The notes under the pieces are model-generated. The model had not been told where the DNA came from. It made no database searches and worked only from the letters and a program-made list of their open reading frames with translations. From Patescibacteria group bacterium (lineage in GTDB: Bacteria > Patescibacteriota > Minisyncoccia > UBA6257 > 2-01-FULL-56-20): DNA of 64,000 nucleotides. Location of the stretch: NCBI GenBank assembly GCA_018971305.1, contig JAGXBC010000001.1:31408-95407 (forward strand), given 5' to 3'. The position numbers and the translations under genes are program-made. This document shows, in pieces, positions 1-63,225 of this stretch (the first letter of the stretch is position 1; the number at the start of each line of letters is the position of its first letter).

Positions 1-754
1 CGGCCTTGCGCTGGAGGAGATGCGTGACGAAAGTCTTCCGGAACAGGTGGTGCTTGATCTGTTTTTTTATCCCGAGCTTTTCCGCGAGTTCCTGCAGATG
101 GTTCCGGATGTAGCCGCCGGAGCTCCCGCGCACCAGCCTCGCGCGGCCCGATATGAAGAGTGCGGAGTTGTCGTCGCGACGGTTTTCCAAATATCGTTTA
201 AGCCAACACAGGCTACGGTCCGAGAAATATACCTTTTGTCGTTCATGCGATTTCACGTTCGTGATGATCGCCTCTTTTTTCTCCCAATCGACGTCATCTC
301 TATTCATGGGTATGACTTCACCGATCCGCATGCCGGTAGCGTAAAGCACCTCGAGAAGCGTCCGGGTGCGAAGCCCGGCAGGCGTCGAGATGTCGATGGC
401 GTCGAGCAGTTGTTCGAGTTCTTCTTCGGTGAGATATTCGTTTTTCTTCTGAGGCACGGATGGAATCCTTATGTCCTGCCACCTGAACGGAGCCGGTTCA
501 CCGGAATACTTCAGGTATTTCAGGAACTTCCGCAACACAACGACCGAGCGCTGCGCCCCGTACCGGCCGTGTGAACGCCCAGCCTCTATCACCTTCGCCA
601 CGTCGGTCTTCTTGAGATCCGCGATGTCGATGTCGTGGATCGAGTGGGAAAGTGATCCGAGAAGATATACCCGATCGTTAAGAATAGTCTTCCCGCTCAT
701 GCCCATCTTCTCCTGATAGGCTAGGAATGCTTCGAATGCGTTTTTGGTTTTCAT
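1..754 (-). CDS. Tyrosine recombinase/integrase, paralog 1 (partial: C-terminus including the catalytic Tyr lies beyond the window start)
   Basis: Minus-strand translation from ATG at 752-754 gives MKTKNAFEAFLAYQEKMGMSGKTILNDRV...LRTRTLLEVLYATGMRIGEV...HHLFRKTFVTHLLQ. It parallels the adjacent recombinase residue for residue. The plus-strand ORF 20..574 is its antisense shadow. Confidence 0.75.
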   Translation of the reverse strand, partial: MKTKNAFEAFLAYQEKMGMSGKTILNDRVYLLGSLSHSIHDIDIADLKKTDVAKVIEAGRSHGRYGAQRSVVVLRKFLKYLKYSGEPAPFRWQDIRIPSVPQKKNEYLTEEELEQLLDAIDISTPAGLRTRTLLEVLYATGMRIGEVIPMNRDDVDWEKKEAIITNVKSHERQKVYFSDRSLCWLKRYLENRRDDNSALFISGRARLVRGSSGGYIRNHLQELAEKLGIKKQIKHHLFRKTFVTHLLQRKA

Positions 755-1656
755 GGTGCCATATTCCGGCCTCCACCAGTCTTCGGCTTTTTGAGCGTCG
801 CGTTCATGATCTTGGTATGGATCTCTTTCGAGCGCTCTTTGTTTATCGCCGCGTAATAGCGAAGTGTCGTGCGCACGTCCCGATGTCGGGCGAGCTGGCT
901 TACCGTCGCCGGATCCGCTCCTTCCTGGATGAGATGCGTCACGAACGATTTCCTGAAAATGTGGTTCTTGATGTGTTTGTTGATGCCGAGGTGCGCGGTA
1001 TGCGTGCGCAGATACGTGCGGGCCGTGATGTCGAGCAGCCTTCCTTTGCCCGACACGAACAGGTACGGCATGTCGTCCGTCCTCGCGTTGAGATACTTTC
1101 GAAGCCAGAGCAGCGCCCGGTCCGTGAAAAGCACCGACTGCTGGTCTCCATTTTTCGCATTTATGACGACGGCCTCCATCTTCTCCCAGTCGATGTCGCT
1201 TTTGTTTAACGAAATTGCCTCGGAGATGCGCATGCCGGTGGCGAACAGGATCTCGCAGAGCGCCCTCGTCCTCAGCCCATGCAGCTTGCTAAGGTCGAAT
1301 GACTCCATGACCTTGATGAGTTCTTCCTTCGTAAGATACTCGTTGATCTTCCTCGGCACGTGCGGCACTTCGATGTCGCGCCAGTCGAACGGGATCGGGA
1401 CGCTCGCGTCCTCAAGATACTTGAAGAACTTCCGGAGGGTGGTTACGGAGCGCTGCGGTCCGTACTCACCGTGGGCGCGGCCGGCGACGACCACGTCCGC
1501 GATATCTGTCATCTTGAGCGATCCTAACTCACGCTCCGAAATCGAGTGCGAGAACGATCCGTAGAGGATGATCTTGTCCGACGCGATCGTCTTCTGATCC
1601 ATCCCCAGTCGCCGCCTATGGTCGAGGTATCCCTCGAATGCATTTTTCACCGTCAT
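751..1656 (-). CDS. Tyrosine recombinase/integrase (XerC/XerD-like), paralog 2
   Basis: 301-aa ORF with a phage-integrase core: LRTRALCEILFATGMRISEA, HIFRKSFVTHLIQEG, LARHRDVRTTLRYYA (R..H..R..Y signature). Its TGA stop overlaps the ATG of the downstream paralog (ATGA at 751-754). Confidence 0.85.
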   Translation of the reverse strand: MTVKNAFEGYLDHRRRLGMDQKTIASDKIILYGSFSHSISERELGSLKMTDIADVVVAGRAHGEYGPQRSVTTLRKFFKYLEDASVPIPFDWRDIEVPHVPRKINEYLTKEELIKVMESFDLSKLHGLRTRALCEILFATGMRISEAISLNKSDIDWEKMEAVVINAKNGDQQSVLFTDRALLWLRKYLNARTDDMPYLFVSGKGRLLDITARTYLRTHTAHLGINKHIKNHIFRKSFVTHLIQEGADPATVSQLARHRDVRTTLRYYAAINKERSKEIHTKIMNATLKKPKTGGGRNMAP

Positions 1657-1793
1657 TTCTTTTTTTGCCTACAACACAACAAAGCCTTGAACCCTCGAAT
1701 ATAGCAACGCCAGTTATGCACAGCCGAGAAAAGCCTTTAAAAACCTTGCTTGTCCCGCTCCAGGCCGCCATTTCTTGATTGTCGGGGTTTGTT

Positions 1794-2099
1794 TTAGAAG
1801 CCTCGATATTTTGCCTGTGGCTCATCGCTATGGAGGTCGAACTTATCCCACTTGCCAGCAGAATTATTCATCGCAAACTCTATGGCCGTAGCAAGCGCCT
1901 TCCTGATGAGGCCGAACGCGTCGTCTTCCTCAATGAGAGCGCACTCGATGCGTTTAAGTTCTTTCTCGGTCAACTTGCGGCCGAAATTCGTCTCGGCCAC
2001 ATCTTGGACCGTCTCCTGATTAGCCACGTAGAAAGCGACAACGTCTTCGTCTGCCAAATCGATCACCATCGTTTTGTGTATTTGTTGATCGTCGAGCAT
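1794..2099 (-). CDS. Hypothetical small acidic protein (101 aa)
   Basis: ORF starts 5 nt after the stop of the upstream winged-helix gene on the same strand and directly precedes the recombinases; no recognisable motif. Confidence 0.4.
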   Translation of the reverse strand: MLDDQQIHKTMVIDLADEDVVAFYVANQETVQDVAETNFGRKLTEKELKRIECALIEEDDAFGLIRKALATAIEFAMNNSAGKWDKFDLHSDEPQAKYRGF

Positions 2100-2103
2100 T
2101 GTT

Positions 2104-2601
2104 TTATTTTTCTTTCCTGAGCTTCTTTAGTATTTCCTCAAGGCGCCGATCGACCTGACTTGCTCCGGCGCCCTCTTCATCTCGATTGATCTCAATTTTG
2201 TCCCAAAGCCGTTTCTGTCGCGCATGTTTATTGATTTTCTCCATAAATGGTCGGAGGTCGTAGATATTCGTCCGCAGATCGTTTCGCTCATTAATGATCG
2301 CGAGGTATCCTTTTCCGACCAGCCGCTTTTTCGCTCCATGCAGCGTCGTCGGCGTGCAACCGAGCTGTTTTGCAACCTTCGCGATCGGAGGACCAATAAT
2401 GTTGCCGTATTCTCCGTCTTTAACGCGGGATAAGAGCTGCAAGATGAAATCCATTTCAGATATGGTCAGCTGCAACTCGTTTCGGCGCTGAAGAAGAATG
2501 TTCGGGATTGCCGTCATGCCAAAATGCAGCACGTCGTCATCATATGCCGCCTTCCGTGGAATGATATTTTCGTCCTCTGTTTTTTCAGTACTTATGTCCA
2601 T
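2104..2601 (-). CDS. Winged-helix DNA-binding protein (replication-initiator / replisome-organiser-like), 165 aa from internal ATG
   Basis: Internal Met (MDISTEKTED...) chosen. HTH-like segment ISEMDFILQLLSRVKDGEYGNIIGPPIAKVAKQLGCTPTTLHGAKKRLVGKGYL with a basic C-terminal tail; first gene of the recombinase operon. Confidence 0.45.
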   Translation of the reverse strand: MDISTEKTEDENIIPRKAAYDDDVLHFGMTAIPNILLQRRNELQLTISEMDFILQLLSRVKDGEYGNIIGPPIAKVAKQLGCTPTTLHGAKKRLVGKGYLAIINERNDLRTNIYDLRPFMEKINKHARQKRLWDKIEINRDEEGAGASQVDRRLEEILKKLRKEK

Positions 2602-3136
2602 GTCTGTATTTCTCCGCTTTTCTCCGAACAGAGACGAGAAGGGGAAAAGCCATACTCGGCCCTGTTTTTTTGACAAGTTGGTCCGTTGTCTCCCGGCTTG
2701 CCTCACCTTCCGCTCTCCGCAGGTCGCTGCATGCGCCATATTGGGTACGAAGCTGCCGCCGGATAGTGACGACAGTCTCTCGCTCATCTCCGACATAGAG
2801 ACTTTCGATTGCTGTCGAAAGCGCATCGGGGCTGAGTCCGGTCATTTAACTGGCGAGCAGAGGAGGCTGTACCGGTTCGCCGCACCTTTCCCCCACAACG
2901 AAATGCAAGGACCTGCCAGTACGGTGAGACCTGGCAGGTCCTTGCATGCAAGGCCGCACCGTATACTGAAGTCGGTCTTGTACTTCCGACTTCTGTTTTA
3001 CGGTATCAAATAGCAGTGCGGGGTCCGCTGAACTTAAAAACCGCCCGTGTCCCGAGCGGCTTTGCAACTGCCGTATTATCAATCCTTTTTAGAAAATGGC
3101 GTGTCCGCAGAATAGTCAGAAAACAGGTCAGGCCGG

Positions 3137-3697
3137 TCAGCCCAGTTTTATAACAAGTCTGCATTGTGTCCTAGTTCTATCGATCCTAATAGGAATCATT
3201 TTCTCCGCTATCCGCGAATTGAAGCGAGTTATCTGCTTGATAACAGCACCTTCGGTCCGCGCACCAGTCACAAACTTGAGATTCTTTACGGACATAGTCC
3301 GGGGTCTCCGACTCACAATCGCATTGCCTTTCATTTCAAATCTTCCCTCCCATAAGACTTTGATTATTTTAATTATTTTCGTACCTTCCAGATTCTTGCG
3401 GCTATTGAGCGGCAGTGCTTCTTGTCCATTGTTTATGATGATCATGTTGTCGTCAAAACGGACCGATTTGATCTTGATGGGCCCGTCATTGGCAGCAGAG
3501 CTCTTTCGCTTATCCGACGATCCAAACAACGCACGCACGTGTGGCTTCGGCGATACAAGCATCCGCATTTGTCCATCGTGAAGGGGGTTGAGGTATTGAA
3601 AGTCATAATCGCCCGTATTGAGCCCGGTCTCTGTCGTGGTGGGCGGGAAAACTGTTCGTTGCGCCTTTTTACTTTTATCACCGTTGCGATTGCTCAT
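3137..3697 (-). CDS. Hypothetical protein (186 aa)
   Basis: Long minus-strand ORF with an intergenic gap below its stop (3082-3137); no recognisable motif. Confidence 0.4.
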   Translation of the reverse strand: MSNRNGDKSKKAQRTVFPPTTTETGLNTGDYDFQYLNPLHDGQMRMLVSPKPHVRALFGSSDKRKSSAANDGPIKIKSVRFDDNMIIINNGQEALPLNSRKNLEGTKIIKIIKVLWEGRFEMKGNAIVSRRPRTMSVKNLKFVTGARTEGAVIKQITRFNSRIAEKMIPIRIDRTRTQCRLVIKLG

Positions 3698-3952
3698 TTC
3701 ACCGTTATTTCGCTTTATTTTATCGCATTTCTAAAAATAGGGCTACACATTTCGTTCTGAATAAGTTAGCATTCCATCATAACTGAATATGAGGCCTAAT
3801 CCCCGTAGAAATGCGAGGCAGGGCTAAAAATACCAGTCAAGGTCAAAGATCCCATCATGTGGGAGCGCCTTGACTGGTCATACCTCGAAAGGGGTATGGG
3901 TCTCGCAAGAGATCGCCCATGTGGTGGGTTTTTTGATGTTAAATATATCATC

Positions 3953-4330
3953 ATGAAAACAATAACCGATTTAAACAACAAGATGTGGTACAGATTTTTG
4001 AAGGTTTTTTACATCCTTCTAATTTTTGTAGTCATCACCATCACGATTATGATTGGTTGGTCAGACACTTCTTATACGCCATTCGACCCATCTCAGTTTG
4101 GAGCAATACCAGTACAGCCAAAAGATCTTGGCTACTTACCCGTGGACACATCCGCTCCAAACATAAATCAGCTCAGTCCCAGCGACTACACTACGGCACA
4201 GAAATCAAATGGCTTGATGCAGTTCCTCGGTGAGGTTGTCCCGATATTGATCGTGGAGCTATTACTATTTGAGTTTGCCCGAAGAGCTTTCTATTACATA
4301 GTTCTGGGTACCTGGAGGCCTAAAAGATAG
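3953..4330 (+). CDS. Hypothetical small membrane protein (2 predicted TM helices)
   Basis: From internal ATG MKTITDLNNKMWYRFLKVFYILLIFVVITITIMIGW... and a second hydrophobic stretch VVPILIVELLLFEF. Confidence 0.4.
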   Translation: MKTITDLNNKMWYRFLKVFYILLIFVVITITIMIGWSDTSYTPFDPSQFGAIPVQPKDLGYLPVDTSAPNINQLSPSDYTTAQKSNGLMQFLGEVVPILIVELLLFEFARRAFYYIVLGTWRPKR

Positions 4331-4896
4331 CTCCGAGAATATATAGATAAATCAGTTCCATCATTTTCGAATTTCTGATTTTGGTGATTTTTTTCAATTT
4401 TTCAAGTTTGGCGATATTGCTCTCATCGGGTCGAAATCCAATCGGTCCCGAAATGGGAGTTTGGGATTTTCGTCCGGTCTCTTTTTTCAGTTTTTCAGTT
4501 TTATCATAAATGTAGTTTAAGTGTTCAGATTTTGAACATCCTCTCGCTGCTGATTTGCAGTAGATGCAGCGAAAATGCCGTTTCTGATTGTGACACCAGT
4601 TTGCCAGTATTTTTCCAGTATTTACTGGCTACTCATTGCGATATTTTGACCGCACGGCAGTATTTTGGAACGATTTTGACCGGTTTCTTCTGTTCAAATC
4701 ATCAAGTTGGAAGAAATAATTTTGGTAGTTTTTTTAATTATTTAATTTCCCCGATCGCATGTTCAATTTTTGCACATACGAAAACAGCTCCGATGATTCG
4801 GAGCTGTTCGTGTATCCAATTGCTAACCACTCACTCCTTCAATTTGCAACTTAGGCAGTTCATTTTGGCAAAAGGCCGATTTGTTAAGCTTATTAT

Positions 4897-5703
4897 ATGC
4901 CGTTCGTCTCTCTCTCTCTCGTAAATATGATAACGCCACCCGTGCAGTTTCCTTCGGTATTCAAAGATGGGATTGATTTCGCCCTTTCCGCGAGCGTTTT
5001 AGCCATCGGCGTTATCGCCTGTTTTTTCTTCTTTATCGAGTGGCTGAAGCACAAGCACCATAAGTTCCTGCTCTACTGGTCTTTGGGATTTTTAGGAATC
5101 TACTGGTTCCAGATACCGGCTATATTGTTCCATGCTGGAGCCAGTTTCACGTTATCAGATTTCAACCTCTTTTATTCTATATCTTTTCCACTGGCCTTCA
5201 TCGGCCTCGTTGCCATATACAAAGGCATACGCTCGGTAGGTTTTTTGAAGCCTGGCTGGATCAAGAACTATCACCTCTGGATTTGGATGATCCTTTCCCT
5301 CGCCGTATTCGGGACATACGTCTATCTCTTCGGCAGTGCGCCGGACAACTATGTCATTGAGTTCCTGGTCGTCTTCCTCTTTTTCCTGCCGGTTTATTTC
5401 CTCAATATGTACGGTCTGATCCAATGGAAGCGTGACTGGAAGGCAGTAGCTACTAAAACCATCAACGCCGGCATAGTGCTCATGTTTGTAGGCCTGCTTA
5501 TAGGACTATCGGAGAATTTCCTCGCCCTGCGGCAGATACTCATGTACCCTCCGCAGTTCTGGTTCCTGGCCGTCGCTTCGTCGCGGGTTATGTATCTCCT
5601 CCAGTCCGTCGGGATGGTTTTCATGATTACCGGATTTTTCTTCACGCATCACGGGTTCAAAAGAATGAAGTCGGAAGATGTCAAAAGTATTGCCGGGGTT
5701 TAA
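4897..5703 (+). CDS. Hypothetical polytopic integral membrane protein (268 aa, about 7 hydrophobic segments)
   Basis: Repeated 20-aa hydrophobic segments throughout; followed by a terminator hairpin at 5732-5754. Confidence 0.55.
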   Translation: MPFVSLSLVNMITPPVQFPSVFKDGIDFALSASVLAIGVIACFFFFIEWLKHKHHKFLLYWSLGFLGIYWFQIPAILFHAGASFTLSDFNLFYSISFPLAFIGLVAIYKGIRSVGFLKPGWIKNYHLWIWMILSLAVFGTYVYLFGSAPDNYVIEFLVVFLFFLPVYFLNMYGLIQWKRDWKAVATKTINAGIVLMFVGLLIGLSENFLALRQILMYPPQFWFLAVASSRVMYLLQSVGMVFMITGFFFTHHGFKRMKSEDVKSIAGV

Positions 5704-5720
5704 TTATATAAACCGAGGCT

Positions 5721-5754
5721 TTAATAAAAAACGGCTCCGATGTCCTCGGAGCCG
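5721..5754 (-). terminator. Rho-independent terminator downstream of rpsI (usable in both directions)
   Basis: Stem cggctccg(5732-5739)/cggagccg(5747-5754) with loop atgtcct, preceded on the plus strand by an A-run (TTTTTTATT on the minus strand). Confidence 0.6.
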
Positions 5755-5781
5755 TTCGATGACTGTCCAAAAATTATACAC

Positions 5782-6237
5782 TCACCTCTTCGCCCACTGG
5801 GGAGCTCTCCTTGCTTTCTTTAAGCCATATTTCTTTCTCTCAACCATCCTCGCATCGCGGGTAAGCAGGCCTAACTTATGCAAACGTACTCCAAAATCCG
5901 GATTATTTTCGGCGAGCGCCCGGGATATGCCTAGACGCACTGCTTCCGCTTGAGCATTAATTCCGCCGCCGGAAACCTTTACACTGCCGTCGAATTTATC
6001 GACAACTTTTAAGATTGTAAGCGGCGAAAGAACAAGTTCCCTAAGGCGCTTTGTTGCAAAATATTGCTCCGAATCTTTTCCGTTCACGCCAAACTTTCCG
6101 TGGCCGCCAACAAGGCGGACGCGGGCAATGGCGGTTTTTCTGCGGCCTACACCCTCGATATATCTCGCGTGAGATATTTTGACTGCCGGCTCGGCCGCTT
6201 TATGATGAACTGATTTTTTTGGTTCTTTGGTAGGCAT
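5782..6237 (-). CDS. rpsI: 30S ribosomal protein S9
   Basis: GRRKTAIARVRL...GGGINAQAEAVRLGISRAL...YGLKKARRAPQWAKR, the S9 signature C-terminus. Confidence 0.9.
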   Translation of the reverse strand: MPTKEPKKSVHHKAAEPAVKISHARYIEGVGRRKTAIARVRLVGGHGKFGVNGKDSEQYFATKRLRELVLSPLTILKVVDKFDGSVKVSGGGINAQAEAVRLGISRALAENNPDFGVRLHKLGLLTRDARMVERKKYGLKKARRAPQWAKR

Positions 6238-6248
6238 GATTTATTTAT

Positions 6249-6602
6249 TTATGACTTATCATCAGCAACGAAAATCAGATTCTTCAATCTTTTCTGATTC
6301 AAAAAATTTTTAGGCAGCATATGGCGCACAACCTCGCGTAAAACACGCTGGGGGTTTTTTGTCATAGCTTCCTCGAGACTCGTCTCCTTAAGATGGCCCA
6401 TATAGCCGGTGTGACGATAGTAAATCCTCCCCTTCAGCTTATTCCCGGTTACCTTGAGGCCTTTGCAGTTTTTTACAAAAACTTTATCGCTGCCGATTAA
6501 GCGCGGCTCGTAATGAGGATTCTTTTTCCCCTGCAAGATAATAGCTATCTCGGAAGCCAAGCGTCCCAATATTTTATTTTTAGCGTCTATGTGGTATTCC
6601 AT
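6249..6602 (-). CDS. rplM: 50S ribosomal protein L13
   Basis: KILGRLASEIAIILQGKKNPHYEP...YYRHTGYMGHLKE motifs typical of L13. Confidence 0.9.
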   Translation of the reverse strand: MEYHIDAKNKILGRLASEIAIILQGKKNPHYEPRLIGSDKVFVKNCKGLKVTGNKLKGRIYYRHTGYMGHLKETSLEEAMTKNPQRVLREVVRHMLPKNFLNQKRLKNLIFVADDKS

Positions 6603-6606
6603 TTAT

Positions 6607-6960
6607 TTATACAAACTCTATTTTGGCCAGACGGCTGCCATCGCGTTTTTTTGATTTAGAAAGCTTGATTATTCTTAAATATCCCCCCCTCCTCTCGGCA
6701 TAACGCTTGGCGAGATCTCCATAAAGCTTTTCCGCCACAACGCTGTTTTGCGTGCGGGCCAGCAAAATCCGCCTTGATGCCAAGTTCTGCTTTTTGGCCA
6801 TAGTAACCAATTTCTCTACGATCGGCCTGATAGCTTTCGCTCTTATTTCGGTAGTTTCCATCCCGCCAGTTCTTACGAGATCGTTGGCCAGGTTCCTAAG
6901 GAACGAACGCCTCTGCCCGGATAATCTATGAAATTTTTTTCCTTTCTTTAAATGACGCAT
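6607..6960 (-). CDS. rplQ: 50S ribosomal protein L17
   Basis: MRHLKKGKKFHRLSGQRRSFLRNLANDLV...GGYLRIIKL, typical of L17. Confidence 0.9.
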   Translation of the reverse strand: MRHLKKGKKFHRLSGQRRSFLRNLANDLVRTGGMETTEIRAKAIRPIVEKLVTMAKKQNLASRRILLARTQNSVVAEKLYGDLAKRYAERRGGYLRIIKLSKSKKRDGSRLAKIEFV

Positions 6961-7002
6961 AAATTTTTATCTCATTACAATCAAACACCTGTTTGAGTTT
7001 TA

Positions 7003-7782
7003 TTATTCGGCTTTCTCGGCTTTCTTTGAACGTACTTTCTTCTTGGGTGCGTCTTCTGCCGCCGGAACTTTTTCCTCGGCAAGCTCCTGAACGGCAACTA
7101 CTGAAATCTTCTCAAAGTGGTCCTTTAGAACATTCGCCGACTTATGAAGCGCCGAGGATGGGCTTATGGTACCGTCCGTTTCCACTTCAAGGCGCAGACG
7201 GTTATAGTCCGTCCTGTCGCCAACACGCATATCTTCAACCACGAAATTTACTTTGGTAACCGGAGTGAATATGGCATCGATGGCAATCGTGCCGATATTC
7301 AACCTCCCCTCCTTTCTGCTTTCTACGGCGGAATATCCGAGACCACGCTCAACTTTTACCTCAATTTCCAATTCGGCGTCCTTAGAAGTCAGCGTCGCCA
7401 ATGGTTCGTCTGGGTTCATAATCTCCACCTCCGAGGTAGTTTTTATATCGGCTGCCGTAATAACCTTTTCGCCCTTCACCTTCAGAATCAATACCTGCGG
7501 CTCATCGATATGCATTTTAAATCTGAGTCTTTTGAAATTAAGGCTGAGCTCAACCAAATCCTCTTTCAGCCCGGGCAATGTTGAAAATTCGTGCGGAGCG
7601 TTCTTAACTTTTATCTCGGTGACCGCGGCGCCTGGCAAAGAAGACAAAAGGACCCGGCGCAAAGCATTGCCTACAGTAAGACCGTATCCGGCGAATAATC
7701 CCTCAACTTCAAAAGTTCCCTTTTTAGAATCTTCGGAAACTGTTTTAATTGTTACTGTTTCGCTTAGATGGGTAAATTGCAT
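7003..7782 (-). CDS. rpoA: DNA-directed RNA polymerase alpha subunit, short form (259 aa, N-terminal domain only)
   Basis: TVGNALRRVLLSSLPGAAVTEIKV...ATLTSKDAELEIEVKVERGLGY matches the alpha NTD. The ORF ends in a lysine-rich tail with no alpha-CTD. Position rpsD-rpoA-rplQ is canonical. Confidence 0.85.
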   Translation of the reverse strand: MQFTHLSETVTIKTVSEDSKKGTFEVEGLFAGYGLTVGNALRRVLLSSLPGAAVTEIKVKNAPHEFSTLPGLKEDLVELSLNFKRLRFKMHIDEPQVLILKVKGEKVITAADIKTTSEVEIMNPDEPLATLTSKDAELEIEVKVERGLGYSAVESRKEGRLNIGTIAIDAIFTPVTKVNFVVEDMRVGDRTDYNRLRLEVETDGTISPSSALHKSANVLKDHFEKISVVAVQELAEEKVPAAEDAPKKKVRSKKAEKAE

Positions 7783-7807
7783 GGTTTTAGTTTTATTTAC
7801 TTGGATT

Positions 7808-8416
7808 TTATTTGGAAAATGCTTCGACTAAGAGTTTTACTTCGAAAGGCGTTGAGGAGTCGGTAGGAGGAGAAAGAACGCGGCCTTCAAATGTATCCCT
7901 GTCCAAGGCGAGCCATTCCGGCGGTTCGTATTTTTTTAAGATGTCTTTCCTTTTTTCAATAACATTCAAGCTATTATCTACCTTGACCACATCACCAGTT
8001 TTAACTGTAAATCCGGGAGAATGCACCTTCTTACCATTAACAGAAACGTGTCCGTGCACGATAATCTGGCGCGCCGAGCCGCGAGAAGATGTAAAACCGA
8101 ACCTGTAAACGACGTTGTCAAGCCTTTTTTCCAAAAATTCTATCATCTTGGCAGCTGATGAACCTTTGGCCTTCTTGGCTTCCGAGAATATTCTCAAGAG
8201 AGTGCTCTCGTTCAATCCATAGCTCCATTTAAATTTTTGCTTTTCTTTCGTCTGCAATCCAAACTCAGAAACGCTTCTGCGCCTGGCCGACTGTCCGTGT
8301 GCGCCCGGCTTGTAAGGCTTCCTTACCATTGCGCATTTCGTGGAATTGCAACGTTCGCCTTTTAAATGAAGGCGCTCGCCAACCGCTCTCTCTTTTTTTT
8401 CTTTAGGACCGATCAT
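7808..8416 (-). CDS. rpsD: 30S ribosomal protein S4
   Basis: RLHLKGERCNSTKCAMVRKPYKPGAHG...QIIVHGHVSVNGKKV, typical of S4. Confidence 0.9.
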   Translation of the reverse strand: MIGPKEKKERAVGERLHLKGERCNSTKCAMVRKPYKPGAHGQSARRRSVSEFGLQTKEKQKFKWSYGLNESTLLRIFSEAKKAKGSSAAKMIEFLEKRLDNVVYRFGFTSSRGSARQIIVHGHVSVNGKKVHSPGFTVKTGDVVKVDNSLNVIEKRKDILKKYEPPEWLALDRDTFEGRVLSPPTDSSTPFEVKLLVEAFSK

Positions 8417-8471
8417 AAAAATATGGTTTGAATGTAGGGTTTAGATTACAGTGATTATTGATAAAAAGCAA

Positions 8472-8918
8472 CTATACGCGCCTTACTTTGGGCGGCCTCG
8501 GGCCGTTGTGCGGAATAGGCGTAGCATCTTTTATAGAAAGAACATTGAAGCCCTGGTTGATAAGCGATCTTACGGCTGAATCCCGTCCGCCGCCTATGCC
8601 TTTAACTATCACGTTCACATTAACCGGTCCGGCATCCTTGAGTTTCTCCGTGATGGCCGCAATAACCTTGGAAGAAGCAAATGGCGTAGCCTTCTTTGGT
8701 CCGGCAAAACCGAGAGATCCAGCCGAAGCCCAAGCCAGAACATTCCCTGATTTATCCGTGACTGTAACGACCGTATTGTTATACGAAGCGTTCACATAAA
8801 CCCTGCCTTCCTCAAATTTTTTGGATTTCCTTGCAACCTGAGGAACCGCAGCCGTAGCAGCCGGGGTCTGTTCTTTAGATGCCTCTTTTAATGGTTCTTT
8901 TACTTTTTTCTTACCCAT
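8472..8918 (-). CDS. rpsK: 30S ribosomal protein S11
   Basis: Start placed at internal MGKKKVKEP to avoid overlap with rpsM. GRVYVNASYNNTVVTVTD...GFNVLSIKDATPIPHNGPRPPKVRRV. Confidence 0.9.
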   Translation of the reverse strand: MGKKKVKEPLKEASKEQTPAATAAVPQVARKSKKFEEGRVYVNASYNNTVVTVTDKSGNVLAWASAGSLGFAGPKKATPFASSKVIAAITEKLKDAGPVNVNVIVKGIGGGRDSAVRSLINQGFNVLSIKDATPIPHNGPRPPKVRRV

Positions 8919-8955
8919 GTGTTTGTTTATAGGCGCGTTTATCGCCAAAGATATT

Positions 8956-9339
8956 TTATTTGAGGTCAACTTTTCTCTTACCGCTGCCAGCCGTCTTTCT
9001 CACATTGCCGCGAACGGTACGGGAATTCGTTTTAGTGCGTTGACCGCGCACTGGCAGACGCCTCAAATGCCTGGTCCCCCGATAGGTCTTAAGATCTTTT
9101 AATCTTTGAATATTGCGCTTGATCAATTGCCTCAATTCTCCTTCTAGGCGATAATTTTTTTCCACAAACCCGTTGATTCTGGCTATTTCTTCTGCGGTTA
9201 GGGTGTTAGTCCTTTTACTAATGTCAATTTTGGCAGCTGTTAAAATTTTTCGGCTGGTTGATCTGCCAATACCAAAAATATAAGTAAGCGATACTTCTAC
9301 TCTCTTATTATCAGGAATGTTTACACCTAGCATTCTCAT
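8956..9339 (-). CDS. rpsM: 30S ribosomal protein S13
   Basis: MRMLGVNIPDNKRVEVSLTYIFGIGRSTSRKIL...KDLKTYRGTRH, typical of S13. Confidence 0.9.
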   Translation of the reverse strand: MRMLGVNIPDNKRVEVSLTYIFGIGRSTSRKILTAAKIDISKRTNTLTAEEIARINGFVEKNYRLEGELRQLIKRNIQRLKDLKTYRGTRHLRRLPVRGQRTKTNSRTVRGNVRKTAGSGKRKVDLK

Positions 9340-9360
9340 AATCGTAAATAAATATTATTT

Positions 9361-9474
9361 TTATCCTTGTTTTTGTTTGTGCTTCGGATTATTACAAACA
9401 ATATAAAGCCGGCCCTTACGCTTAACGACCTGGCAATTTTTACATATCTTTTTTATTGAACTTCTGACTTTCAT
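9361..9474 (-). CDS. rpmJ: 50S ribosomal protein L36
   Basis: Unlisted small ORF read by hand: [37 protein letters not shown] (37 aa), lying between rpsM and infA as expected. Confidence 0.8.
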
Positions 9475-9494
9475 TTTTTATTTGAGAAATATTA

Positions 9495-9704
9495 TCACAA
9501 TCGGCGCACTATCCTTCCCCTTCTGCCATCCGGACCCATTTCCACAAGAACGCGGTCTCCGGGAAGAACCCTGATGTTATGAATCTTCATCTTGCCTGCT
9601 AAATGAGCCAAAACTTCCCCATCGGGTTTGTTTTTAAGCCCGATTCTGAAAGTAAGGCCTGGCAAGGCTTCCTTAACTATTCCTTCTTCGGATGCAACCC
9701 TCAT
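9495..9704 (-). CDS. infA: Translation initiation factor IF-1
   Basis: [63 protein letters not shown], an S1-like fold typical of IF-1. Confidence 0.9.
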
Positions 9705-9809
9705 TTACTGAAGTATTTCTGATTCATAACTACCTGTTTAAAAGCGGTAATGTAGGTTATTGGTTCTATGGGATTATAGACGATGATCATCATTCTTGTC
9801 AATAAAGGC

Positions 9810-11468
9810 TCAGTTCACTAAAACCTTTATTTTATTAGCGGCGGAAGGCATATTTTTCAGCCATACAGGCCACAAAGAAATTTTAGCATTCACCAAGTGC
9901 GGCAGACCGGTAATAAGCTTTTGAGCATCATCCACGCTCTTACCCAATATTTGCGCCACAAAATCATCGGCGGAGAAATCCGGCTTCAACGTTCCTTTTG
10001 CCGTCAGGTCAAACGACTCGCTACCTTTAATTAAATCAACTTGTACTTTTCCATATGTGAGATCTAGGGAGTCAAACACCATTCCCGGATTGTCCTTTTG
10101 CGCTAAAGCCGTCAGCACGGACTTCAAATCGGATTCCTTAAAGCCGACCGTCTTCATATTGGCTTCGCCGAAAACATTAAAAGTGCCGCTGGCGTTGGCG
10201 ATAGCATCGGCACTTAATTTTGTAATGGTAATAGACGATGCTCCTTCCAATATTTTAAAATCAGCGGGGTAAGAGGAGAGGAAGCTGCTGTTTAACCTGG
10301 TTGTTAAAAGATCCGACACTCTTGCCTTAGACTTACTTATATCCCCTGCAGTAGGAACCGCGCTGAATCCGACAAACCCTCCGCTTGTGGGAATTTTTAT
10401 TCCCCCATAAAACCCGGCGTAGCGCGGCGTACCCTGAAAACCGGGAATAGTAAGCTTGGCAATCGGTCCGACGTTGTAGCTGACACCGGCTTTATCAGCA
10501 ATGATATTCGCATCAATGCTTGATGGGGTAATCTGACCATTTTTGATTACGGCTCCCGGAACAATAACTTGGTTAATTATTCTAAATATTTTTCCATCGG
10601 GAGTCGCAAAACGGGTAGTGGCCACAAGAGTTTGCGGAGCGGAGCTGTAGGCATTGTAAATAGTAATTTTCCCCGTTGCCTTCTCGGAAACCGTGCTGGA
10701 ACCAGAAGCTGGAAATGGCTGGACCATATTGGTCTGCGGGGTAAAGAATTCCGCCGGCAAAATATTGTTATCGGCATTTATTTTTGCAACAGCGGAATCC
10801 GCTGTAAATTGATGTTCATAAGACCAAGGCGTCCTCCGAAAATTTATCTGGATGGTTGCCCTGTTCAAGAATCTTCCCGTAACAAAAAACCCTGCGATTA
10901 CAAGAACCACAACGCCAATCACAAGCAAAGCCCTCTTTCCTCCAAGTTTAGGCAGGCGCAAGCGAGGCAGAGACATCCACTCTCTTGCTTTGGATTCCTG
11001 GGCCCGCTCTTTCCTTCCTACCCTAGCTTCCAAAATAACCTCTTCCTCCTCTTCTTCGCCTTCCGTTATGCTTGGTTTGAAATTATAACTAACTGGTTTT
11101 TCTTCCGCACGGCGATTAGGTTCCTTTTTTGACTTCCTGGATAATTGTTCCGGTCTGTTTTTTTTATCGCCAGCTATGCTAAGCGGCACAATATCTGAAA
11201 GTGCCGAACCCTTCCTGTCTAAAAGCGGATGAACCGCCTCCAAGTCGCTCGACTGCGCAAGCGCCAAAACGCTTTCATCAACGGATTCAATAGTCACGGT
11301 TTTACCGGCAGATTCGGCCTCTCTTTTTATAAGATGGAAGTTGCTCACCGAACCTCCCAAGGCAGCGTTTTTGGGAACAACTAAAGTTACGCTGTCTTCC
11401 TCGCTGCCGATGATCTTTTCAACTATTTCGGCAACGCCTTCGCTTTTATCTATAAAAAGTTTTTCCAT
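9810..11468 (-). CDS. Hypothetical membrane-anchored protein (552 aa from MEKLF; acidic N-domain, one TM helix, large extracytoplasmic domain)
   Basis: Start trimmed to the internal ATG that avoids overlap with the upstream gene. EEEEEE acidic stretch, then TM LLVIGVVVLVIAGFFV, then a Gly/Thr/Ser-rich domain. Confidence 0.5.
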   Translation of the reverse strand: MEKLFIDKSEGVAEIVEKIIGSEEDSVTLVVPKNAALGGSVSNFHLIKREAESAGKTVTIESVDESVLALAQSSDLEAVHPLLDRKGSALSDIVPLSIAGDKKNRPEQLSRKSKKEPNRRAEEKPVSYNFKPSITEGEEEEEEVILEARVGRKERAQESKAREWMSLPRLRLPKLGGKRALLVIGVVVLVIAGFFVTGRFLNRATIQINFRRTPWSYEHQFTADSAVAKINADNNILPAEFFTPQTNMVQPFPASGSSTVSEKATGKITIYNAYSSAPQTLVATTRFATPDGKIFRIINQVIVPGAVIKNGQITPSSIDANIIADKAGVSYNVGPIAKLTIPGFQGTPRYAGFYGGIKIPTSGGFVGFSAVPTAGDISKSKARVSDLLTTRLNSSFLSSYPADFKILEGASSITITKLSADAIANASGTFNVFGEANMKTVGFKESDLKSVLTALAQKDNPGMVFDSLDLTYGKVQVDLIKGSESFDLTAKGTLKPDFSADDFVAQILGKSVDDAQKLITGLPHLVNAKISLWPVWLKNMPSAANKIKVLVN

Positions 11469-11493
11469 ATACCAAATTATATCACGGAGCTTT

Positions 11494-12633
11494 TTATTGC
11501 ACCAACCAATGTATCCTCCTGCGCAGATGGTGGTTAATTTCCGAATCGCGCTTGTCGTAGTAGAACTCAAAAAATGGTGCCAGGCGCATAAAAATTTCGT
11601 TGGGCGGCATGGGCCAGTCGGCAAAATCCAATCCAAAACCGAATTTATCAAAGGCCTCCCTCGCCGGCAGATCATGGAGCGTAAATCGCCCGTAATTCAG
11701 AGGCGTATCTATCGGCAAAGGCAATAAAGAATGGAAAAACGTCTGTCCCTTGAGCCTGGATGACTTTAGACCGTTTAAGAAATTACTGACTTCCGGCTTC
11801 AATATTCTGTCCATAAATTTCTTAAAGCTTTCGGAAATATCTCCCGAAAGATACTTTCTGTAAATTAATTCCGCTGACTCCTGCCCAACATGGAAAGCCG
11901 AAATAATGCTGTCTATTAAAGAATTATGCCGCCAGTCAAATTTTTCTTCGTAAACAACATTTCCCCAGGCGGATTTCTCCAGAGAAAAACAGGATACTCC
12001 TCCGGAGCCGATTATAGCTAAATTCACAGGCGGCTGCTGAATTTTGGCAAGAGAAAAAAGCCCAGCCCGGGCTTCGGATGTAAAGAAAAATCCATCTCCG
12101 GAACCGAAGAAGTATTTTAGATAATCAAAAACAGGGCGGGCGGTAAAAGTAAGCCGCATCACGGCGCCGACTACCTTACCCGGGAAAGAAAGCGGGTTCA
12201 CGACATAGTGCCCGTCTATTTTAAAATTATCCACTTCGGCATTAACGAGTACGGTATCAAGTTCGTGCAGTCCTAAACGCCTCGCCGCCTCGGCCCTTTC
12301 CGGTCCGAATCCTTTGCCGATGGCCTGCGACAAGAGATTATCCAATTCGACCATATTCAGCTGTTTCGTGTGGTCGTCCGGCGCACGTTTCATTTCTATC
12401 GGATAAGAAACCGCCACCGCCAAAGAGGGGTCAGCCGAAACTATCATATTTCTTTTCCTTAATTTAGTTATTTTGGAATTGTGCCAGGTCTCCAAAGGAA
12501 ATTCTGCCCAAATTTTTTCCAGAGTAAGGTTCTTGTCTTTATCTAAACCCAAAAGCAAACCCCTTGTCTTCTGCGGAGCAATATCAATCAGAAGATATTT
12601 TTCTTTTGGGCGCCAGAACTTTAGGTCAATCAC
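11494..12633 (-). CDS. Hypothetical protein (379 aa)
   Basis: Long ORF tightly packed between alaS and the 552-aa gene; no firm motif (weak resemblance to actin-like ATPase N-termini, not relied on). Confidence 0.5.
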   Translation of the reverse strand: MIDLKFWRPKEKYLLIDIAPQKTRGLLLGLDKDKNLTLEKIWAEFPLETWHNSKITKLRKRNMIVSADPSLAVAVSYPIEMKRAPDDHTKQLNMVELDNLLSQAIGKGFGPERAEAARRLGLHELDTVLVNAEVDNFKIDGHYVVNPLSFPGKVVGAVMRLTFTARPVFDYLKYFFGSGDGFFFTSEARAGLFSLAKIQQPPVNLAIIGSGGVSCFSLEKSAWGNVVYEEKFDWRHNSLIDSIISAFHVGQESAELIYRKYLSGDISESFKKFMDRILKPEVSNFLNGLKSSRLKGQTFFHSLLPLPIDTPLNYGRFTLHDLPAREAFDKFGFGLDFADWPMPPNEIFMRLAPFFEFYYDKRDSEINHHLRRRIHWLVQ

Positions 12634-56469: not shown

Positions 56470-59400
56470 CTACTCGGTTTGCGATTCTTTTGCAACTTCT
56501 GGAACGGGAGCCTGAAGCTCCGATACTTCATCATCGGAATCACCGGCTCTTTTCACCTTAATCTCTCCGGAAGGTATTAATCTGCCTATAATCACATTTT
56601 CTTTAAGCCCGCGCAGATTATCGGTCCTGCCCTCGATAGCCGCCTTCACTAAAACTCTTGCCGTATCCTGGAAAGACGCTGCGGCAAGGAAACTATCGGA
56701 AGAAATAGCAACCCGCGTTATGCCTAATAGAATTTCTTCGGCCTTAGCAACCTTGAGACCCTGTTTTTTAAGTTCTTTATTGACGTCCATCAGCAAAGCT
56801 TTTTCAATGATTTCCCCCATGACAAAATCCGAAGCATCTCCGGCATCCTTGATTTTAACCCTGGAGAACATCTGCTTGATGATAACTTCTATGTGCTTGT
56901 TGTTTATAGAGGCACCTTCGGAGAGATAGATCCTTTGAACTTCGTTCACAACGTAGCGCTCAACTTCCCTTACGCCTCTGAATTCCAAAAGTTCTCTCAA
57001 GTCAATGTGACCCTCGGAAATCTGCTGGCCTTTTTCAATTTTATCTCCGGCTTTCACGAACAAAAGAGCGGAACGCGGCACCGAGAACTCCTGGGCTTTT
57101 TTCTTTTTGGTTTTCTGAGGATTTTTTTCCAATAGTTTTATTATCTTGCTCGTCCCCTTTTCTTCTATAACATCAATCGAGCAATCAAAGGGAGCTAAAA
57201 TAGCCTTGCCTTTCGGCGGGCGGACTTCAAAAATTTCTTCCACGCGCGGCAAACCGTGGGTGATGTCCACTCCGGCAACACCTCCGGTGTGGAAAGTTCT
57301 CATCGTAAGCTGCGTTCCAGGTTCACCGATTGATTGCGCGGCAAGTACCCCTACCGCTCCACCCAGTTTAACCGGTTCATTGCTGCCGAGATCCAGTCCG
57401 TAACAAGTGGCGCAAAGACCGTAAAGAGTTTTACAGTAAATAGCCGAACGAACTTTAACTGATTCCAATTTGGATTTATCCAGCATCTCGGCTATCGCTC
57501 TTGTGATCACTTCTCCGGCGCGAACAACGATCTTCCTGTCGATTCTTATGTCTTCTAAAGCTGTTCTTGAGAACACTCTGCTAGAAAAAGACTGATTGAA
57601 TTCTTTCCCGTCTTTGCGCAAAATTTCTATCCCCTCTTTCGCGCGGCAATCGTTTTCCCTGATTATGAGATCCTGAGAAACATCAACCAAACGCCTGGTA
57701 AGATATCCTGCTTGTGCAGTTTTTAAAGCCGTGTCCGTAGTACCCTTTCTAGCGCCGGTAGTGGAAATAAAGTATTCCAAAACAGAAAGACCCTCTTTAA
57801 AAGATGATTTGATAGGCAATTCAATCGTTTCTCCTTTCGGATTAGCCACCAATCCTTTCATACCCAACATCTGTATCGGCTGAGCCCAGGAACCGCGCGA
57901 ACCGGAATCGATAATCTGGTAGATGGAATTGTTCTTCGGCAGGGAAGTGGCAACAAGCTTGGCAATGGTTTCCTTCGCTTTTTCCCAGACGCTGATTGTC
58001 CGCGCCCTGCGCTCGGATTCGGTAAGCAAACCCTCGTTCCACTGATCGTGAACAATGTCTATTTCTTTTTCTGACGCTCTGATGATATCTTCCTTTGTGC
58101 CAGGTGCGACAAGGTCGGATATTGCCCAAGTGATTCCAGACCTTGTGGCCATATCAAAACCGAGTGATTTTACCTCATCCAAAACCTCGCGAGTCACCTT
58201 TAATCCGCGGCTCTCCAATATCTTTTCAATAATAGAAGTAAGTTTTTTCTTGTTAATCGTGTCATTTACAAAATCCGCAGCGCCGCACAGGGCTTTATTA
58301 AACATCAACCGGCCCAAGGTTGTTTTTATTCCCTGGGATAATATCGGGTCGTGAAGCTTCAGGCTCCCTGACTCGTAGGCCAATACCGCCTCATCAAAAC
58401 CGGACATAGCTTTTATAAGGGCTTGGTTATCTTCTTTTATAAGTGTCAGATAATAAATACCGAGGACGACATCCTGGGTCGGATTGGTAATAAGATCACC
58501 GGTAGCTGGTTTCAAAAGATTTTGTCCGGCAGACATTATAGTAGCTGCTTCGTGCTGGGCATTCTCAGAAAGCGGCAGGTGGAGAGCCATTTGGTCACCA
58601 TCGAAGTCGGCGTTAAAAGCCGCGCAAACAAGCGGCGGAACGTGTATGGCTAATCCCTCAACAAGAAGCGGCCTGAAAGCCTGTACGCTCAAACGATGCA
58701 AGGTAGGAGCCCTGTTCAATAGAACCCATTTGTCTTTTATAATTTCTTCCAAAATCGCCCAAACCTCGTCACCGCCTTCTTCCATGAAGCGATTGGCGCT
58801 CCTGATGTTATGGGCCAATCCTCTTTTCATAACTTCGCTCAAAACGAACGGACGGAAAAGTTCCAAGGCCATTCGCTTGGGAACTCCGCACTCGTCAATT
58901 TTCAATTTAGGACCGACGACAATAACCGAACGGCCGGAGTAATCAACTCTTTTACCCAAAAGGTTCTGGCGGAACCTTCCTTGTTTGCCCTTAAGCATAT
59001 CTGCAAGGGAACGAAGCGGACGGCGCTGAGCGGACAATTGCTGCGTGCCGAAACGGGCAGAATTATCTATGAGGGCATCAACGGATTCCTGGAGCATTCT
59101 TTTCTCATTCCTCACGATCACATCTGGAGCTTTGATCTCCAAAAGCTTCTTCAAACGGTTATTGCGGTTGATGACGCGCCGATATAGGTCATTAAGATCG
59201 GATGTCGCATAGCGGCCGCCGTCCAGCGCGACCATCGGGCGCAGATCCGGAGGCAAAACCGGCAAAACATTAATTATCAGCCATTCCGGACGAGCCTGGT
59301 TCTTTATCATGGAACGGAACATCTTCAGGCGGCGCAATAATTTACCCTGGGTAAGCGGGTCTTTCGCGCCTTCAAGCTCTTTTTCTATCTCTCTCATCTC

Positions 59401-62400: not shown

Positions 62401-63225
62401 GAACTTCAACCGCTGATTGGTTTTGAAGCGGCCCACCGGAGACAGGTCGTATCTGTCCAAACGCTGGAACATAGCATCAATCAAGCTCTTGGCCGTTGCC
62501 GGCGTCGCCGGGTCACCCGGGCGCAAACGGCGGTAAATTTCCATATACGATTCATCAACGTTCTTAGCTACATCTTTTTTAAACGTAGCTTCAATATATT
62601 TGGCACCAACGCCGGGGAAAGCGTCTTTGATCTTATCCTCTTCCATACCGAAAATACGAAGCATATCTGTAACCGGCACCTTGCGGCGACGGTCGATTTT
62701 AACATGTATGGCTCCGTCCAAGTCGGTTTCAAATTCCAGCCAGGCACCCCTATTCGGAATAACCTTGGCCCCAAAAAGCTGCCTGCCCCTCGTAGGGACG
62801 GCGGTAAGATAAACCCCAGCCGATCTGATAAGCTGAGACACGACAACACGCTCAACGCCGTTAATAATAAAAGTGCCGCGCTCGGTCATTATCGGAAATT
62901 CCCCAAAATAAACTTCTTGCGTTTCCTTGTGGCCAGTTTTCTTGCTCTCCAGAGTAAGCTTTATGCGCAACGCTGCTTCATATGTGGCATCGCGATATCG
63001 CGCAGTGGCTTCGTCGTACTTAGGTTCATCAAAATGGTAATCACTGAAGCTCAATTCCAGTTCCTTACCGGTGTGGTCATAAATAGGAGAAATCTCGTCC
63101 AATAGTTCCCGTAATCCCTTTTTAAGGAACCACTCATAAGATTTCAACTGAGTCTCATTCAGATTGAATGGCTTGATGAGGGACTGGGATTTAGAGAAGT
63201 TTTTGGTTGATAAAAATTTAGGCAT
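56470..63225 (-). CDS. rpoBC: Fused DNA-directed RNA polymerase beta-beta' subunit (RpoB-RpoC in one 2251-aa ORF)
   Basis: The N-terminal ~1020 aa carry RpoB motifs ([29 protein letters not shown]; ...[48 protein letters not shown]). After the short linker [14 protein letters not shown], RpoC follows: zinc finger [35 protein letters not shown] catalytic loop. No stop or frame change occurs across the junction (~60.07-60.10 kb). Confidence 0.9.

Follow-up and report, generated by a model that had tools for sequence, protein, structure and literature searches.

Our analysis concerns the left end of a 64,000-nucleotide (nt) stretch of DNA from a Patescibacteria group bacterium (contig JAGXBC010000001.1; this whole stretch is called the window, and positions refer to it unless an L-number, our label for fetched relative loci and contigs, is given). 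Two adjacent tyrosine recombinase genes on its minus strand, here named intA and intB, lie downstream of rpsI, the gene for ribosomal protein S9, and are preceded by a conserved leader, a small acidic open reading frame (ORF), and a gene for a winged-helix protein resembling the N-terminal domain of DnaD (Table 1). We consider it probable that these genes belong to an integrative, replicating element of Patescibacteria that is specific for rpsI and carries a co-inherited integrase pair, most likely a heteromer in the style of XerC/XerD.

The integrase pair and its relatives

A preliminary description of this DNA had pointed to tandem, paralogous tyrosine recombinases that overlap at an ATGA and follow an acidic ORF and a replication-type winged-helix gene, and these observations hold. 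Both recombinase ORFs match PF00589, and the two proteins align over their full length from residue 1 with 51% identity (E 4e-91, far above chance). The junction reads ccATGAaa at 751-754, with the TGA stop codon of intA overlapping the ATG of intB, and the two upstream genes, the winged-helix one with a match to DnaD_N, are on the same strand. The window edge cuts intB; a Logan contig found by exact look-up of IntA, L001, matches window positions 1-11656 with 0 mismatches and runs 3,265 bases further past position 1, giving a complete intB of 293 amino acids (aa; L001 10903-11784). Left of intB, L001 encodes a dcm-type C5 cytosine methylase and then a restriction-type gene for a GHKL ATPase. 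No third recombinase was found in L001 beyond intB, and the 64-kb window holds no integrase homolog other than IntA and IntB. The two integrase genes have a GC content of 0.54-0.57, compared with a window mean of 0.46.

IntA and IntB are simple Xer-like tyrosine recombinases. The catalytic residues R143, K168, H232, R235, H258, and Y268 (IntA numbering) are invariant in both, and seven positions are fixed differently between them, all in the catalytic domain, two of which adjoin catalytic residues (S145G and N231H). An AlphaFold model of IntA (mean confidence, pLDDT, 93) consists of a single four-helix core-binding domain and a catalytic domain, with no extra helix, and its best matches among solved structures are XerA, the core of Tn1549 Int, IntI, and XerH. 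The top family models for both proteins are XerA, XerD, and XerC, and the nearest solved sequences are archaeal XerA and XerD. All scores fall well below the respective cutoffs: 139-143 bits for the XerA model (NCBIfam equivalog cutoff 220), 138-143 for XerD (cutoff 329.6), 123-126 for XerC (cutoff 335), and 56-73 for the integron-integrase model (cutoff 265). IntA and IntB probably belong to the Xer-related "Cand" subgroup, which Smyshlyaev et al. described for recombinases of candidate phyla (PMC8138268).

One protein search and three collection scans together yielded 78 relatives and many loci. The pair recurs in 11 distinct elements (window/L001, L002/L003, L006, L007, L167, L247, L248, L249, L251/L252, L253, and L254/L255), where every gene of the IntA clade with available downstream sequence is directly followed by intB, neither gene has been lost, and the ATGA overlap is kept in eight of the nine distinct elements in which the junction could be read. 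Identities among IntA proteins range from 60 to 87% and among IntB proteins from 53 to 97%, while IntA and IntB are always 47-54% identical to each other; the window's IntB, for example, shares 55-79% of residues with the IntB proteins of other elements and 47-54% with IntA proteins. A neighbor-joining tree places IntA and IntB in two distinct clades whose internal branching orders agree. This separation, the matching branching, and the conservation of the catalytic residues point to a single old duplication after which both copies were inherited together, as would be expected of an obligate two-subunit enzyme. The sequences flanking the pair vary from locus to locus. The paired form is rare, with L007 alone among the best 80 matches from 185,579 GTDB species representatives. 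More distant single integrases of the same family were seen on IMG/VR viral contigs, near contig ends.

The preliminary description had interpreted the overlapping genes as part of a recombinase-in-trio (RIT) element, with a third recombinase expected just to the left of the window. RIT elements do consist of adjacent, same-strand tyrosine recombinase genes that overlap by a few bases, 4-8 base pairs (bp) in those described (PMC3414803), and the 4-nt overlap seen here would fit. In them, terminal inverted repeats of 34 bp enclose three recombinases of 315-410 aa from three distinct families (PMC3414803, PMC10214605), of which RitA is distinguished by two core-binding domains and RitC by an extra C-terminal helix (PMC8138268). 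In contrast, IntA and IntB are closely paralogous proteins of about 295 aa that belong to a single Xer-like type and have one core-binding domain each, and these descriptions set them apart from RitA, RitB, and RitC. In L001, intB is followed by the methylase and ATPase genes, which refutes a trio for the adjacent position; all 11 paired elements lack a third recombinase beside the pair; and no terminal inverted repeats surround the two genes in L001 5300-14921. We therefore abandon the RIT label, and a RIT-like transposable unit can be given almost no weight.

Integration at the 3' end of rpsI

Where do these elements insert? In six genomes (the window, L248, L004, L011, L031, and L211), rpsI is followed at 0-9.5 kb by an integrase gene of the family that is oriented like rpsI itself. 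To locate the far junctions, each locus was searched with its own rpsI end and with a short motif of the last S9 codons. In L011, a match of 38 of 39 nt that takes in the final 20 nt of rpsI lies 120 nt past the single integrase gene and delimits an island of 10.5 kb. In L211, 20 of 20 nt are repeated at a distance of 2.7 kb, flanking what is left of an integrase gene that is fused to the stop codon of rpsI, and in L004, 13 of 13 nt are repeated 10 kb away, with an orphan copy that reads QWAKR-stop. L248 carries the IntA/IntB pair itself: its real rpsI end, with a terminator hairpin, lies at 5446-5466, and an orphan copy, CCGCAGTGGGCTAAACGTTAA, lies at 19538, followed by a further hairpin-like arm and then the contig end, so that the element between the two rpsI-end copies measures 14.1 kb. 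In seven further loci, orphan copies of the last S9 codons also occur on the same strand, 330-390 nt past the integrase gene, and L009, L173, L249, and L250 have them at larger or smaller distances; in many relatives with only one integrase, such a copy stands at about 350 nt. Overall, the density of the rpsI-end motif is 23.8 per Mb per strand in loci of this family, against 2.9 elsewhere.

Because rpsI-end repeats bound the islands of relatives, we conclude from sequence comparison that the family integrates at the 3' end of rpsI, apparently carrying a substitute for the gene end. The earlier proposal of an integrative element beside the ribosomal-protein cluster is thereby backed by attachment (att)-type repeats in relatives. 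At both junctions of the L011 island (472-520 and 10983-11035), two copies of the rpsI end stand in tandem, 7 nt apart, which suggests that integration has occurred there more than once.

A target of this kind is already known, and is found here in a different phylum. The streptococcal elements IMESag-rpsI and IME_Sag2603_rpsI and the ICESt3-type integrative and conjugative elements use a tyrosine integrase to enter the 3' end of the S9 gene, and they are about 9 kb long and carry cargo and a replication gene (PMC4701971, PMC5704250). They share with the islands described here, which are 2.7-14 kb long and bounded by rpsI-end copies, site specificity for the end of rpsI. They differ in that they occur in Firmicutes and encode one integrase together with relaxase or mobilization genes, whereas the IntA/IntB element comes from Patescibacteria, and its duplicated integrase pair is accompanied by a DnaD-N-like protein and a LOOT RNA; the likeness described here is one of target. 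The readable parts of the element showed no relaxase.

In the window, the rpsI end is part of a repeated segment of about 70 nt that begins in the last rpsI codons (CCCCAGTGGGCGAAGAGGTGA) and includes a terminator hairpin. The hairpin, GCTCCGA-N4/5-TCGGAGC, occurs exactly twice in 64 kb (5734-5752 and 4787-4804, 950 nt apart), with 0 occurrences expected. The copy farther from rpsI is decayed and has the exact runs TTGGATACACG, ACAGCTCCGA, and ATCGGAGCTGT in common with attL of the L248 element. We propose that it represents an old left junction (attL) of the IntA/IntB element, and that the segment between the two copies, which encodes a membrane protein, probably either arrived at this site later as a small insertion or persists there as a remnant. 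When a profile of the hairpin segment (70 nt) was run with nhmmer against all loci, it matched only its three source copies; the far junctions came to light with the shorter motif of rpsI codons. At the other end, an att motif lies 7.6-7.7 kb past intB in both L248 and L249; L001 ends 3.1 kb past intB. Two other kinds of candidate ends were discarded. There are no tRNA genes near the island, here or in relatives, which rules them out as the integration target, and long direct or inverted repeats were dropped as element ends, only short, insignificant pairs besides the hairpin pair being present in L001.

These junctions bear on whether IntA and IntB might be the host's own equivalent of XerC/XerD, serving chromosome dimer resolution and located near rpsI by chance. 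The top family and structure matches to XerA, XerD, and XerC, and the Xer-related Cand subgroup described for candidate phyla (PMC8138268), would be compatible with this idea. Scores of about 140 bits are, however, far under the NCBIfam equivalog cutoffs of 220-335, the paired form is found in only one of the best 80 matches among GTDB representatives, and contigs that carry the pair also carry terminase, primase, diversity-generating retroelement, and methylase genes. In addition, the flanks are variable, and the pair of L248 belongs to an island with rpsI-end repeats at its borders. The patchy distribution, the mobile context, and the atypical GC content make a housekeeping Xer pair unlikely, and we regard it as very improbable. 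Among the outcomes that the preliminary description had named as speaking against its reading, the lack of a third recombinase did materialize, but element ends were found, in relatives and not in this copy, and no conserved housekeeping xerC/xerD locus emerged.

A model for the paired integrases

In conjunction with the distribution of the pair, we propose the following model. The window from position 1 to about 4840 would be the rpsI-proximal part of an integrative plasmid- or phage-like element that continues past the window edge. Its recombination module would comprise the winged-helix DnaD-N-like protein followed by the translationally coupled IntA and IntB, which together would integrate the circular form of the element within the final codons of rpsI. 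The target gene would stay intact, because the element would bring along a copy of the rpsI end and terminator. Most likely, IntA and IntB act as a hetero-tetramer, like XerC/XerD. Each integrase would then occupy one half-site of an asymmetric core and be responsible for one pair of strand exchanges. The winged-helix protein, together with the helicase or primase encoded by relatives, most likely starts replication of the excised circle, and a role as an excision or directionality factor is a further possibility. The stretch from intB to the far junction would collect restriction-modification and other defense genes, represented here by the C5 methylase and the GHKL-ATPase enzyme. Both the function of the winged-helix protein and the use of the same far junction by the window's copy are inferred.

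Several observations weigh against this model. The decayed copy at 4774-4840 lacks the CAGTGG core, and the window's copy of the element may be immobile or composite. Its far junction lies outside the available DNA, where only the rpsI-proximal copy and the decayed internal one are present, and no helicase or primase gene is visible in the readable part of the element. The organization of the pair also has exceptions: the two genes of L254 are 5 nt apart instead of overlapping, the junction of L006 is different, and intB of L007 is split in two frames, which may reflect decay or a long-read error. Relatives with a single integrase share this target, which means that targeting of rpsI does not in itself require a second one, and the joint action of IntA and IntB is deduced from co-inheritance and the XerC/XerD precedent.

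The main rival explanation follows from the last point. IntA and IntB may do separate jobs, one for integration and excision at rpsI and the other for multimer resolution or a second site, or one of them may be a redundant spare. Single-integrase relatives integrate at rpsI by themselves, both proteins of the pair have complete active sites, and the pair adjoins replication genes, the usual place of plasmid multimer-resolution recombinases. Against separate jobs, strict adjacency and the ATGA overlap, which suggests coupled translation, are conserved, and the trees agree over 11 elements in which neither gene was ever lost, a pattern that an obligate partnership fits better; a redundant spare would be expected to decay or disappear in some lineages. 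We consider separate functions or redundancy rather unlikely, and clearly less so than the remaining alternatives.

How would such a heteromer compare with known systems? Like XerC and XerD, IntA and IntB are paralogs and simple tyrosine recombinases, about 300 aa long, that each contain a single core-binding domain and all catalytic residues, and the division of labor that we propose on an asymmetric site is modeled on those enzymes. In Escherichia coli, xerC and xerD are unlinked housekeeping genes. The genes for IntA and IntB, in contrast, are in tandem, overlap, and are carried by a mobile element whose target is the 3' end of rpsI and not dif; to our knowledge, no link to FtsK exists for them. 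The elements Tn554, SE, and GInt likewise encode more than one tyrosine recombinase in an operon, required together, and are target-specific (PMC10214605). Their operons combine one ordinary and one large recombinase that are not close paralogs with the accessory proteins TnpC, Srap, or Tfp, and their ends consist of short inverted repeats with a 6-bp footprint. IntA and IntB, by comparison, are near-equal in size (301 and 293 aa) and 51% identical, their neighbors are the DnaD_N protein and the methylase, and the ends, as seen in relatives, are direct repeats of a gene end. None of the known multi-recombinase elements in the literature that we searched has two near-equal paralogs, and the search returned nothing on tandem, near-equal Xer-like paralog pairs on elements of the Candidate Phyla Radiation.

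Little has been described of the mobile elements of Patescibacteria (the Candidate Phyla Radiation), and few tools exist for these organisms. With its defined target, defined junctions, and compact module, the element family could become an integration tool for them. The conserved tandem pair may be a natural, element-encoded heteromer of the XerC/XerD kind, in which the transition from homomeric to heteromeric integrases could be studied.

Neighboring genes, cargo, and the LOOT RNA

Table 1. Features of the rpsI-proximal region (window coordinates unless L001 is named)
Feature	Position	Strand	Evidence or remark
intB, tyrosine recombinase, cut by the window edge	1-754	-	PF00589, E 4e-26; 251 of 293 aa visible
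intA, tyrosine recombinase, 301 aa	751-1656	-	PF00589, E 1.5e-32
Conserved non-coding leader 5' of intA	1657-1767	-	Alignments; GGCTTnnTTG invariant in 11 loci
Acidic ORF, 101 aa	1794-2099	-	Sub-threshold likeness to the DnaD C-terminal domain: Pfam DnaB_2 E 0.056, NCBIfam DnaD_dom E 0.005
Winged-helix DnaD-N-like protein, 165 aa by public gene call	2104-2601 (longer ORF to 2826)	-	Pfam DnaD_N
Perfect 17-nt inverted repeat with 11-nt spacer	2903-2947		Upstream of the winged-helix gene
186-aa protein, element backbone gene	3137-3697	-	Homolog in L002, 30% identity, E about 1e-15
LOOT RNA (Rfam RF03000)	3793-3914	+	93.7 bits (gathering cutoff 46.4), E 1e-16, model positions 1-121 (full)
Terminator-like hairpin and T-run after LOOT	3915-3937	+	Terminator-like site
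Small membrane-type ORF after LOOT	3953-4330	+	No family match; ORF opens at 3857, inside LOOT
Decayed second copy of rpsI end and terminator hairpin	4774-4840		nhmmer E 2e-15
Membrane protein, 268 aa, between the two att-like copies	4897-5703	+	Two distant homologs only among 5.8 billion clusters
rpsI-proximal att-like segment: last rpsI codons and terminator hairpin	5722-5791		
rpsI (ribosomal protein S9), target gene	5782-6237	-	Pfam Ribosomal_S9
dcm-type methylase and GHKL-ATPase gene	L001 11856-14919 (left of the window)		Methylase gene runs into the 5' end of the ATPase gene

The winged-helix gene is the most constant neighbor of the pair, standing directly 5' of intA in nine of the 11 paired elements (the window, L002, L006, L007, L168, L248, L249, L253, and L254 carry homologs in this position); in L247 and L251, an unrelated protein of about 515 aa takes its place. 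Its product scores 32 bits against Pfam DnaD_N (cutoff 27) and matches the DnaD N-terminal domain structures 2vn2 (E 2.4e-4) and 2v79 in the Protein Data Bank. The acidic ORF is an accessory gene, seen only in the window and L167 (50-56% identity, depending on the ORF segment). Within the leader of about 110 nt, GGCTTnnTTG lies about 25 nt before the intA start codon, and GGnCTTCC is repeated two helical turns apart; the leader may be a promoter, operator, or protein-binding site. It was rejected as attP, the winged-helix gene remaining attached on its other side in integrated copies. CTTCC-rich palindromes follow the helicase genes of L248 (13234-13285) and L006 (4633-4675), and these or the leader motifs may be candidate binding sites or a replication origin. 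L167 has a palindrome at 4775-4811, CCTGCCAG/CTGGCAG, related to the inverted repeat upstream of the window's winged-helix gene. Several loci have such palindromes by this gene, with differing sequences; they were rejected as a shared recombination site and are left as possible operators.

The paired elements are replicating and plasmid- or phage-like. A gene for a helicase or primase (AAA_25, Toprim-AAA_25, or Prim-Pol) adjoins the module in L002, L006, L248, L249, and L253, and a backbone of two N6/N4 methylases, small ORFs, and a reverse transcriptase is common to several relatives, with bAvd, the accessory gene of diversity-generating retroelements, added in L249 and a large terminase in L002. 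The homolog of the window's 186-aa protein in the phage- or plasmid-like L002 sits between the terminase and primase genes. The two ends of the 20-kb stretch of L249 (1-263 and 20221-20484) are 92% identical and each contain a bAvd gene; they could stem from a tandem pair of related elements or from a strain-mixed assembly of a circle.

On the 3' side of intB, directly or after the helicase gene, restriction-modification or methylase genes are present in all eight annotated loci, and their types differ completely between loci: dcm and the GHKL ATPase in the window, a large N6/N4 methylase in L002 and L253, an MmeI-like enzyme in L247, an EcoRI-type methylase and GmrSD in L249, Z1 and dcm behind the helicase in L248, a type I system further on in L006, and HsdM in L254. 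In L251/L252, the product encoded downstream of intB carries no annotation. The window's GHKL-ATPase protein exceeds 624 aa, has a HATPase_c_3 head, and bears a weak likeness to restriction enzymes of the BbrUII/HgiDII type. Close relatives of the dcm-type methylase (74-78% identity) are common in metagenome assemblies, and one at 73% carries the name Candidatus Paceibacterota. The region from intB to the far junction thus offers a predictable place to look for restriction-modification and other defense genes in these genomes.

The regular presence of such genes next to intB would also suit a switch in which the recombinases invert restriction-modification genes for phase variation. The complete change of type between loci speaks against a switch, as does the lack of inverted repeats or duplicated specificity modules in or around these genes in L001, or near the pair elsewhere. 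Moreover, the att-type direct repeats at rpsI account for the recombinases with no need for inversion, and we hold a DNA-inversion switch to be highly unlikely.

Upstream of the integrase operon, and divergent from it, the window encodes a LOOT RNA that points into the small membrane-type ORF. Methionine 3953 is the likely start of this ORF, because the part from 3857 overlaps LOOT. A LOOT RNA is likewise placed 5' of the integrase operon and divergent in L248 (7792-7907), L004 (6821-6938), L011 (8479-8593), and L167 (3920-4039), and 3' of intB on the same strand in L007 (7666-7780), L253 (11173-11291), and L006 (4737-4864). A covariance model built from these eight copies and run over 3.1 Mb of fetched loci gave matches only in loci of this integrase family, adding L013 (2970-3091), L017 (4400-4513), and a weak match in L093. 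There is one copy per locus, always directed into variable cargo. LOOT is element-borne, since the att repeats of the L248, L011, and L004 islands enclose it. It was rejected as a duplicated att site, given the single copy per locus and the lack of partial copies.

The LOOT motif reportedly comes from the 2017 survey by Weinberg et al. Rfam classes it (RF03000) as a small RNA (sRNA), and the main text of that survey (PMC5737381) does not discuss it. Its consistent place in the islands of this integrase family is observed here, and the link to the element provides a concrete setting in which the role of the RNA can be tested. We speculate that LOOT, the DnaD-N-like protein, and IntA/IntB could form a gene-capture platform specific to Patescibacteria, in which LOOT, as RNA or as folded DNA, would work in recombination or in the control of cargo, be it as a co-factor, as a landing site for incoming genes, or as a leader that drives them. 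One gene in the window, that of the 268-aa membrane protein, is bracketed by two rpsI-terminator hairpins like an inserted cassette, which fits such a platform, as does the constant orientation of LOOT toward variable cargo of the defense or membrane type. Unlike in an integron, the only repeated hairpin units are the two rpsI-terminator copies of the window, and no cassette-like repeat families were found in the cargo of seven relatives. Gene capture of this kind is improbable in our estimation; if true, a heteromeric enzyme of the Xer type would underlie a system similar to an integron, and an orphan RNA would gain a function.

Some further features were noted in passing. Near the right end of the window, an ORF of 2,251 aa extends over 56470-63225 on the minus strand. 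Directly 3' of LOOT in L004, the cargo at 4816-6839 includes a gene with a PycTM domain and two unannotated neighbors, possibly a Pycsar-type defense system. Finally, six loci (L014, L016, L018, L020, L025, and L027, genome contigs from Bdellovibrionales, Moranbacteria, Acidobacteriota, and others) contain two or three more distantly related tyrosine recombinase genes near one another, some on the same strand, and these clusters might represent RIT-like or other multi-recombinase elements.

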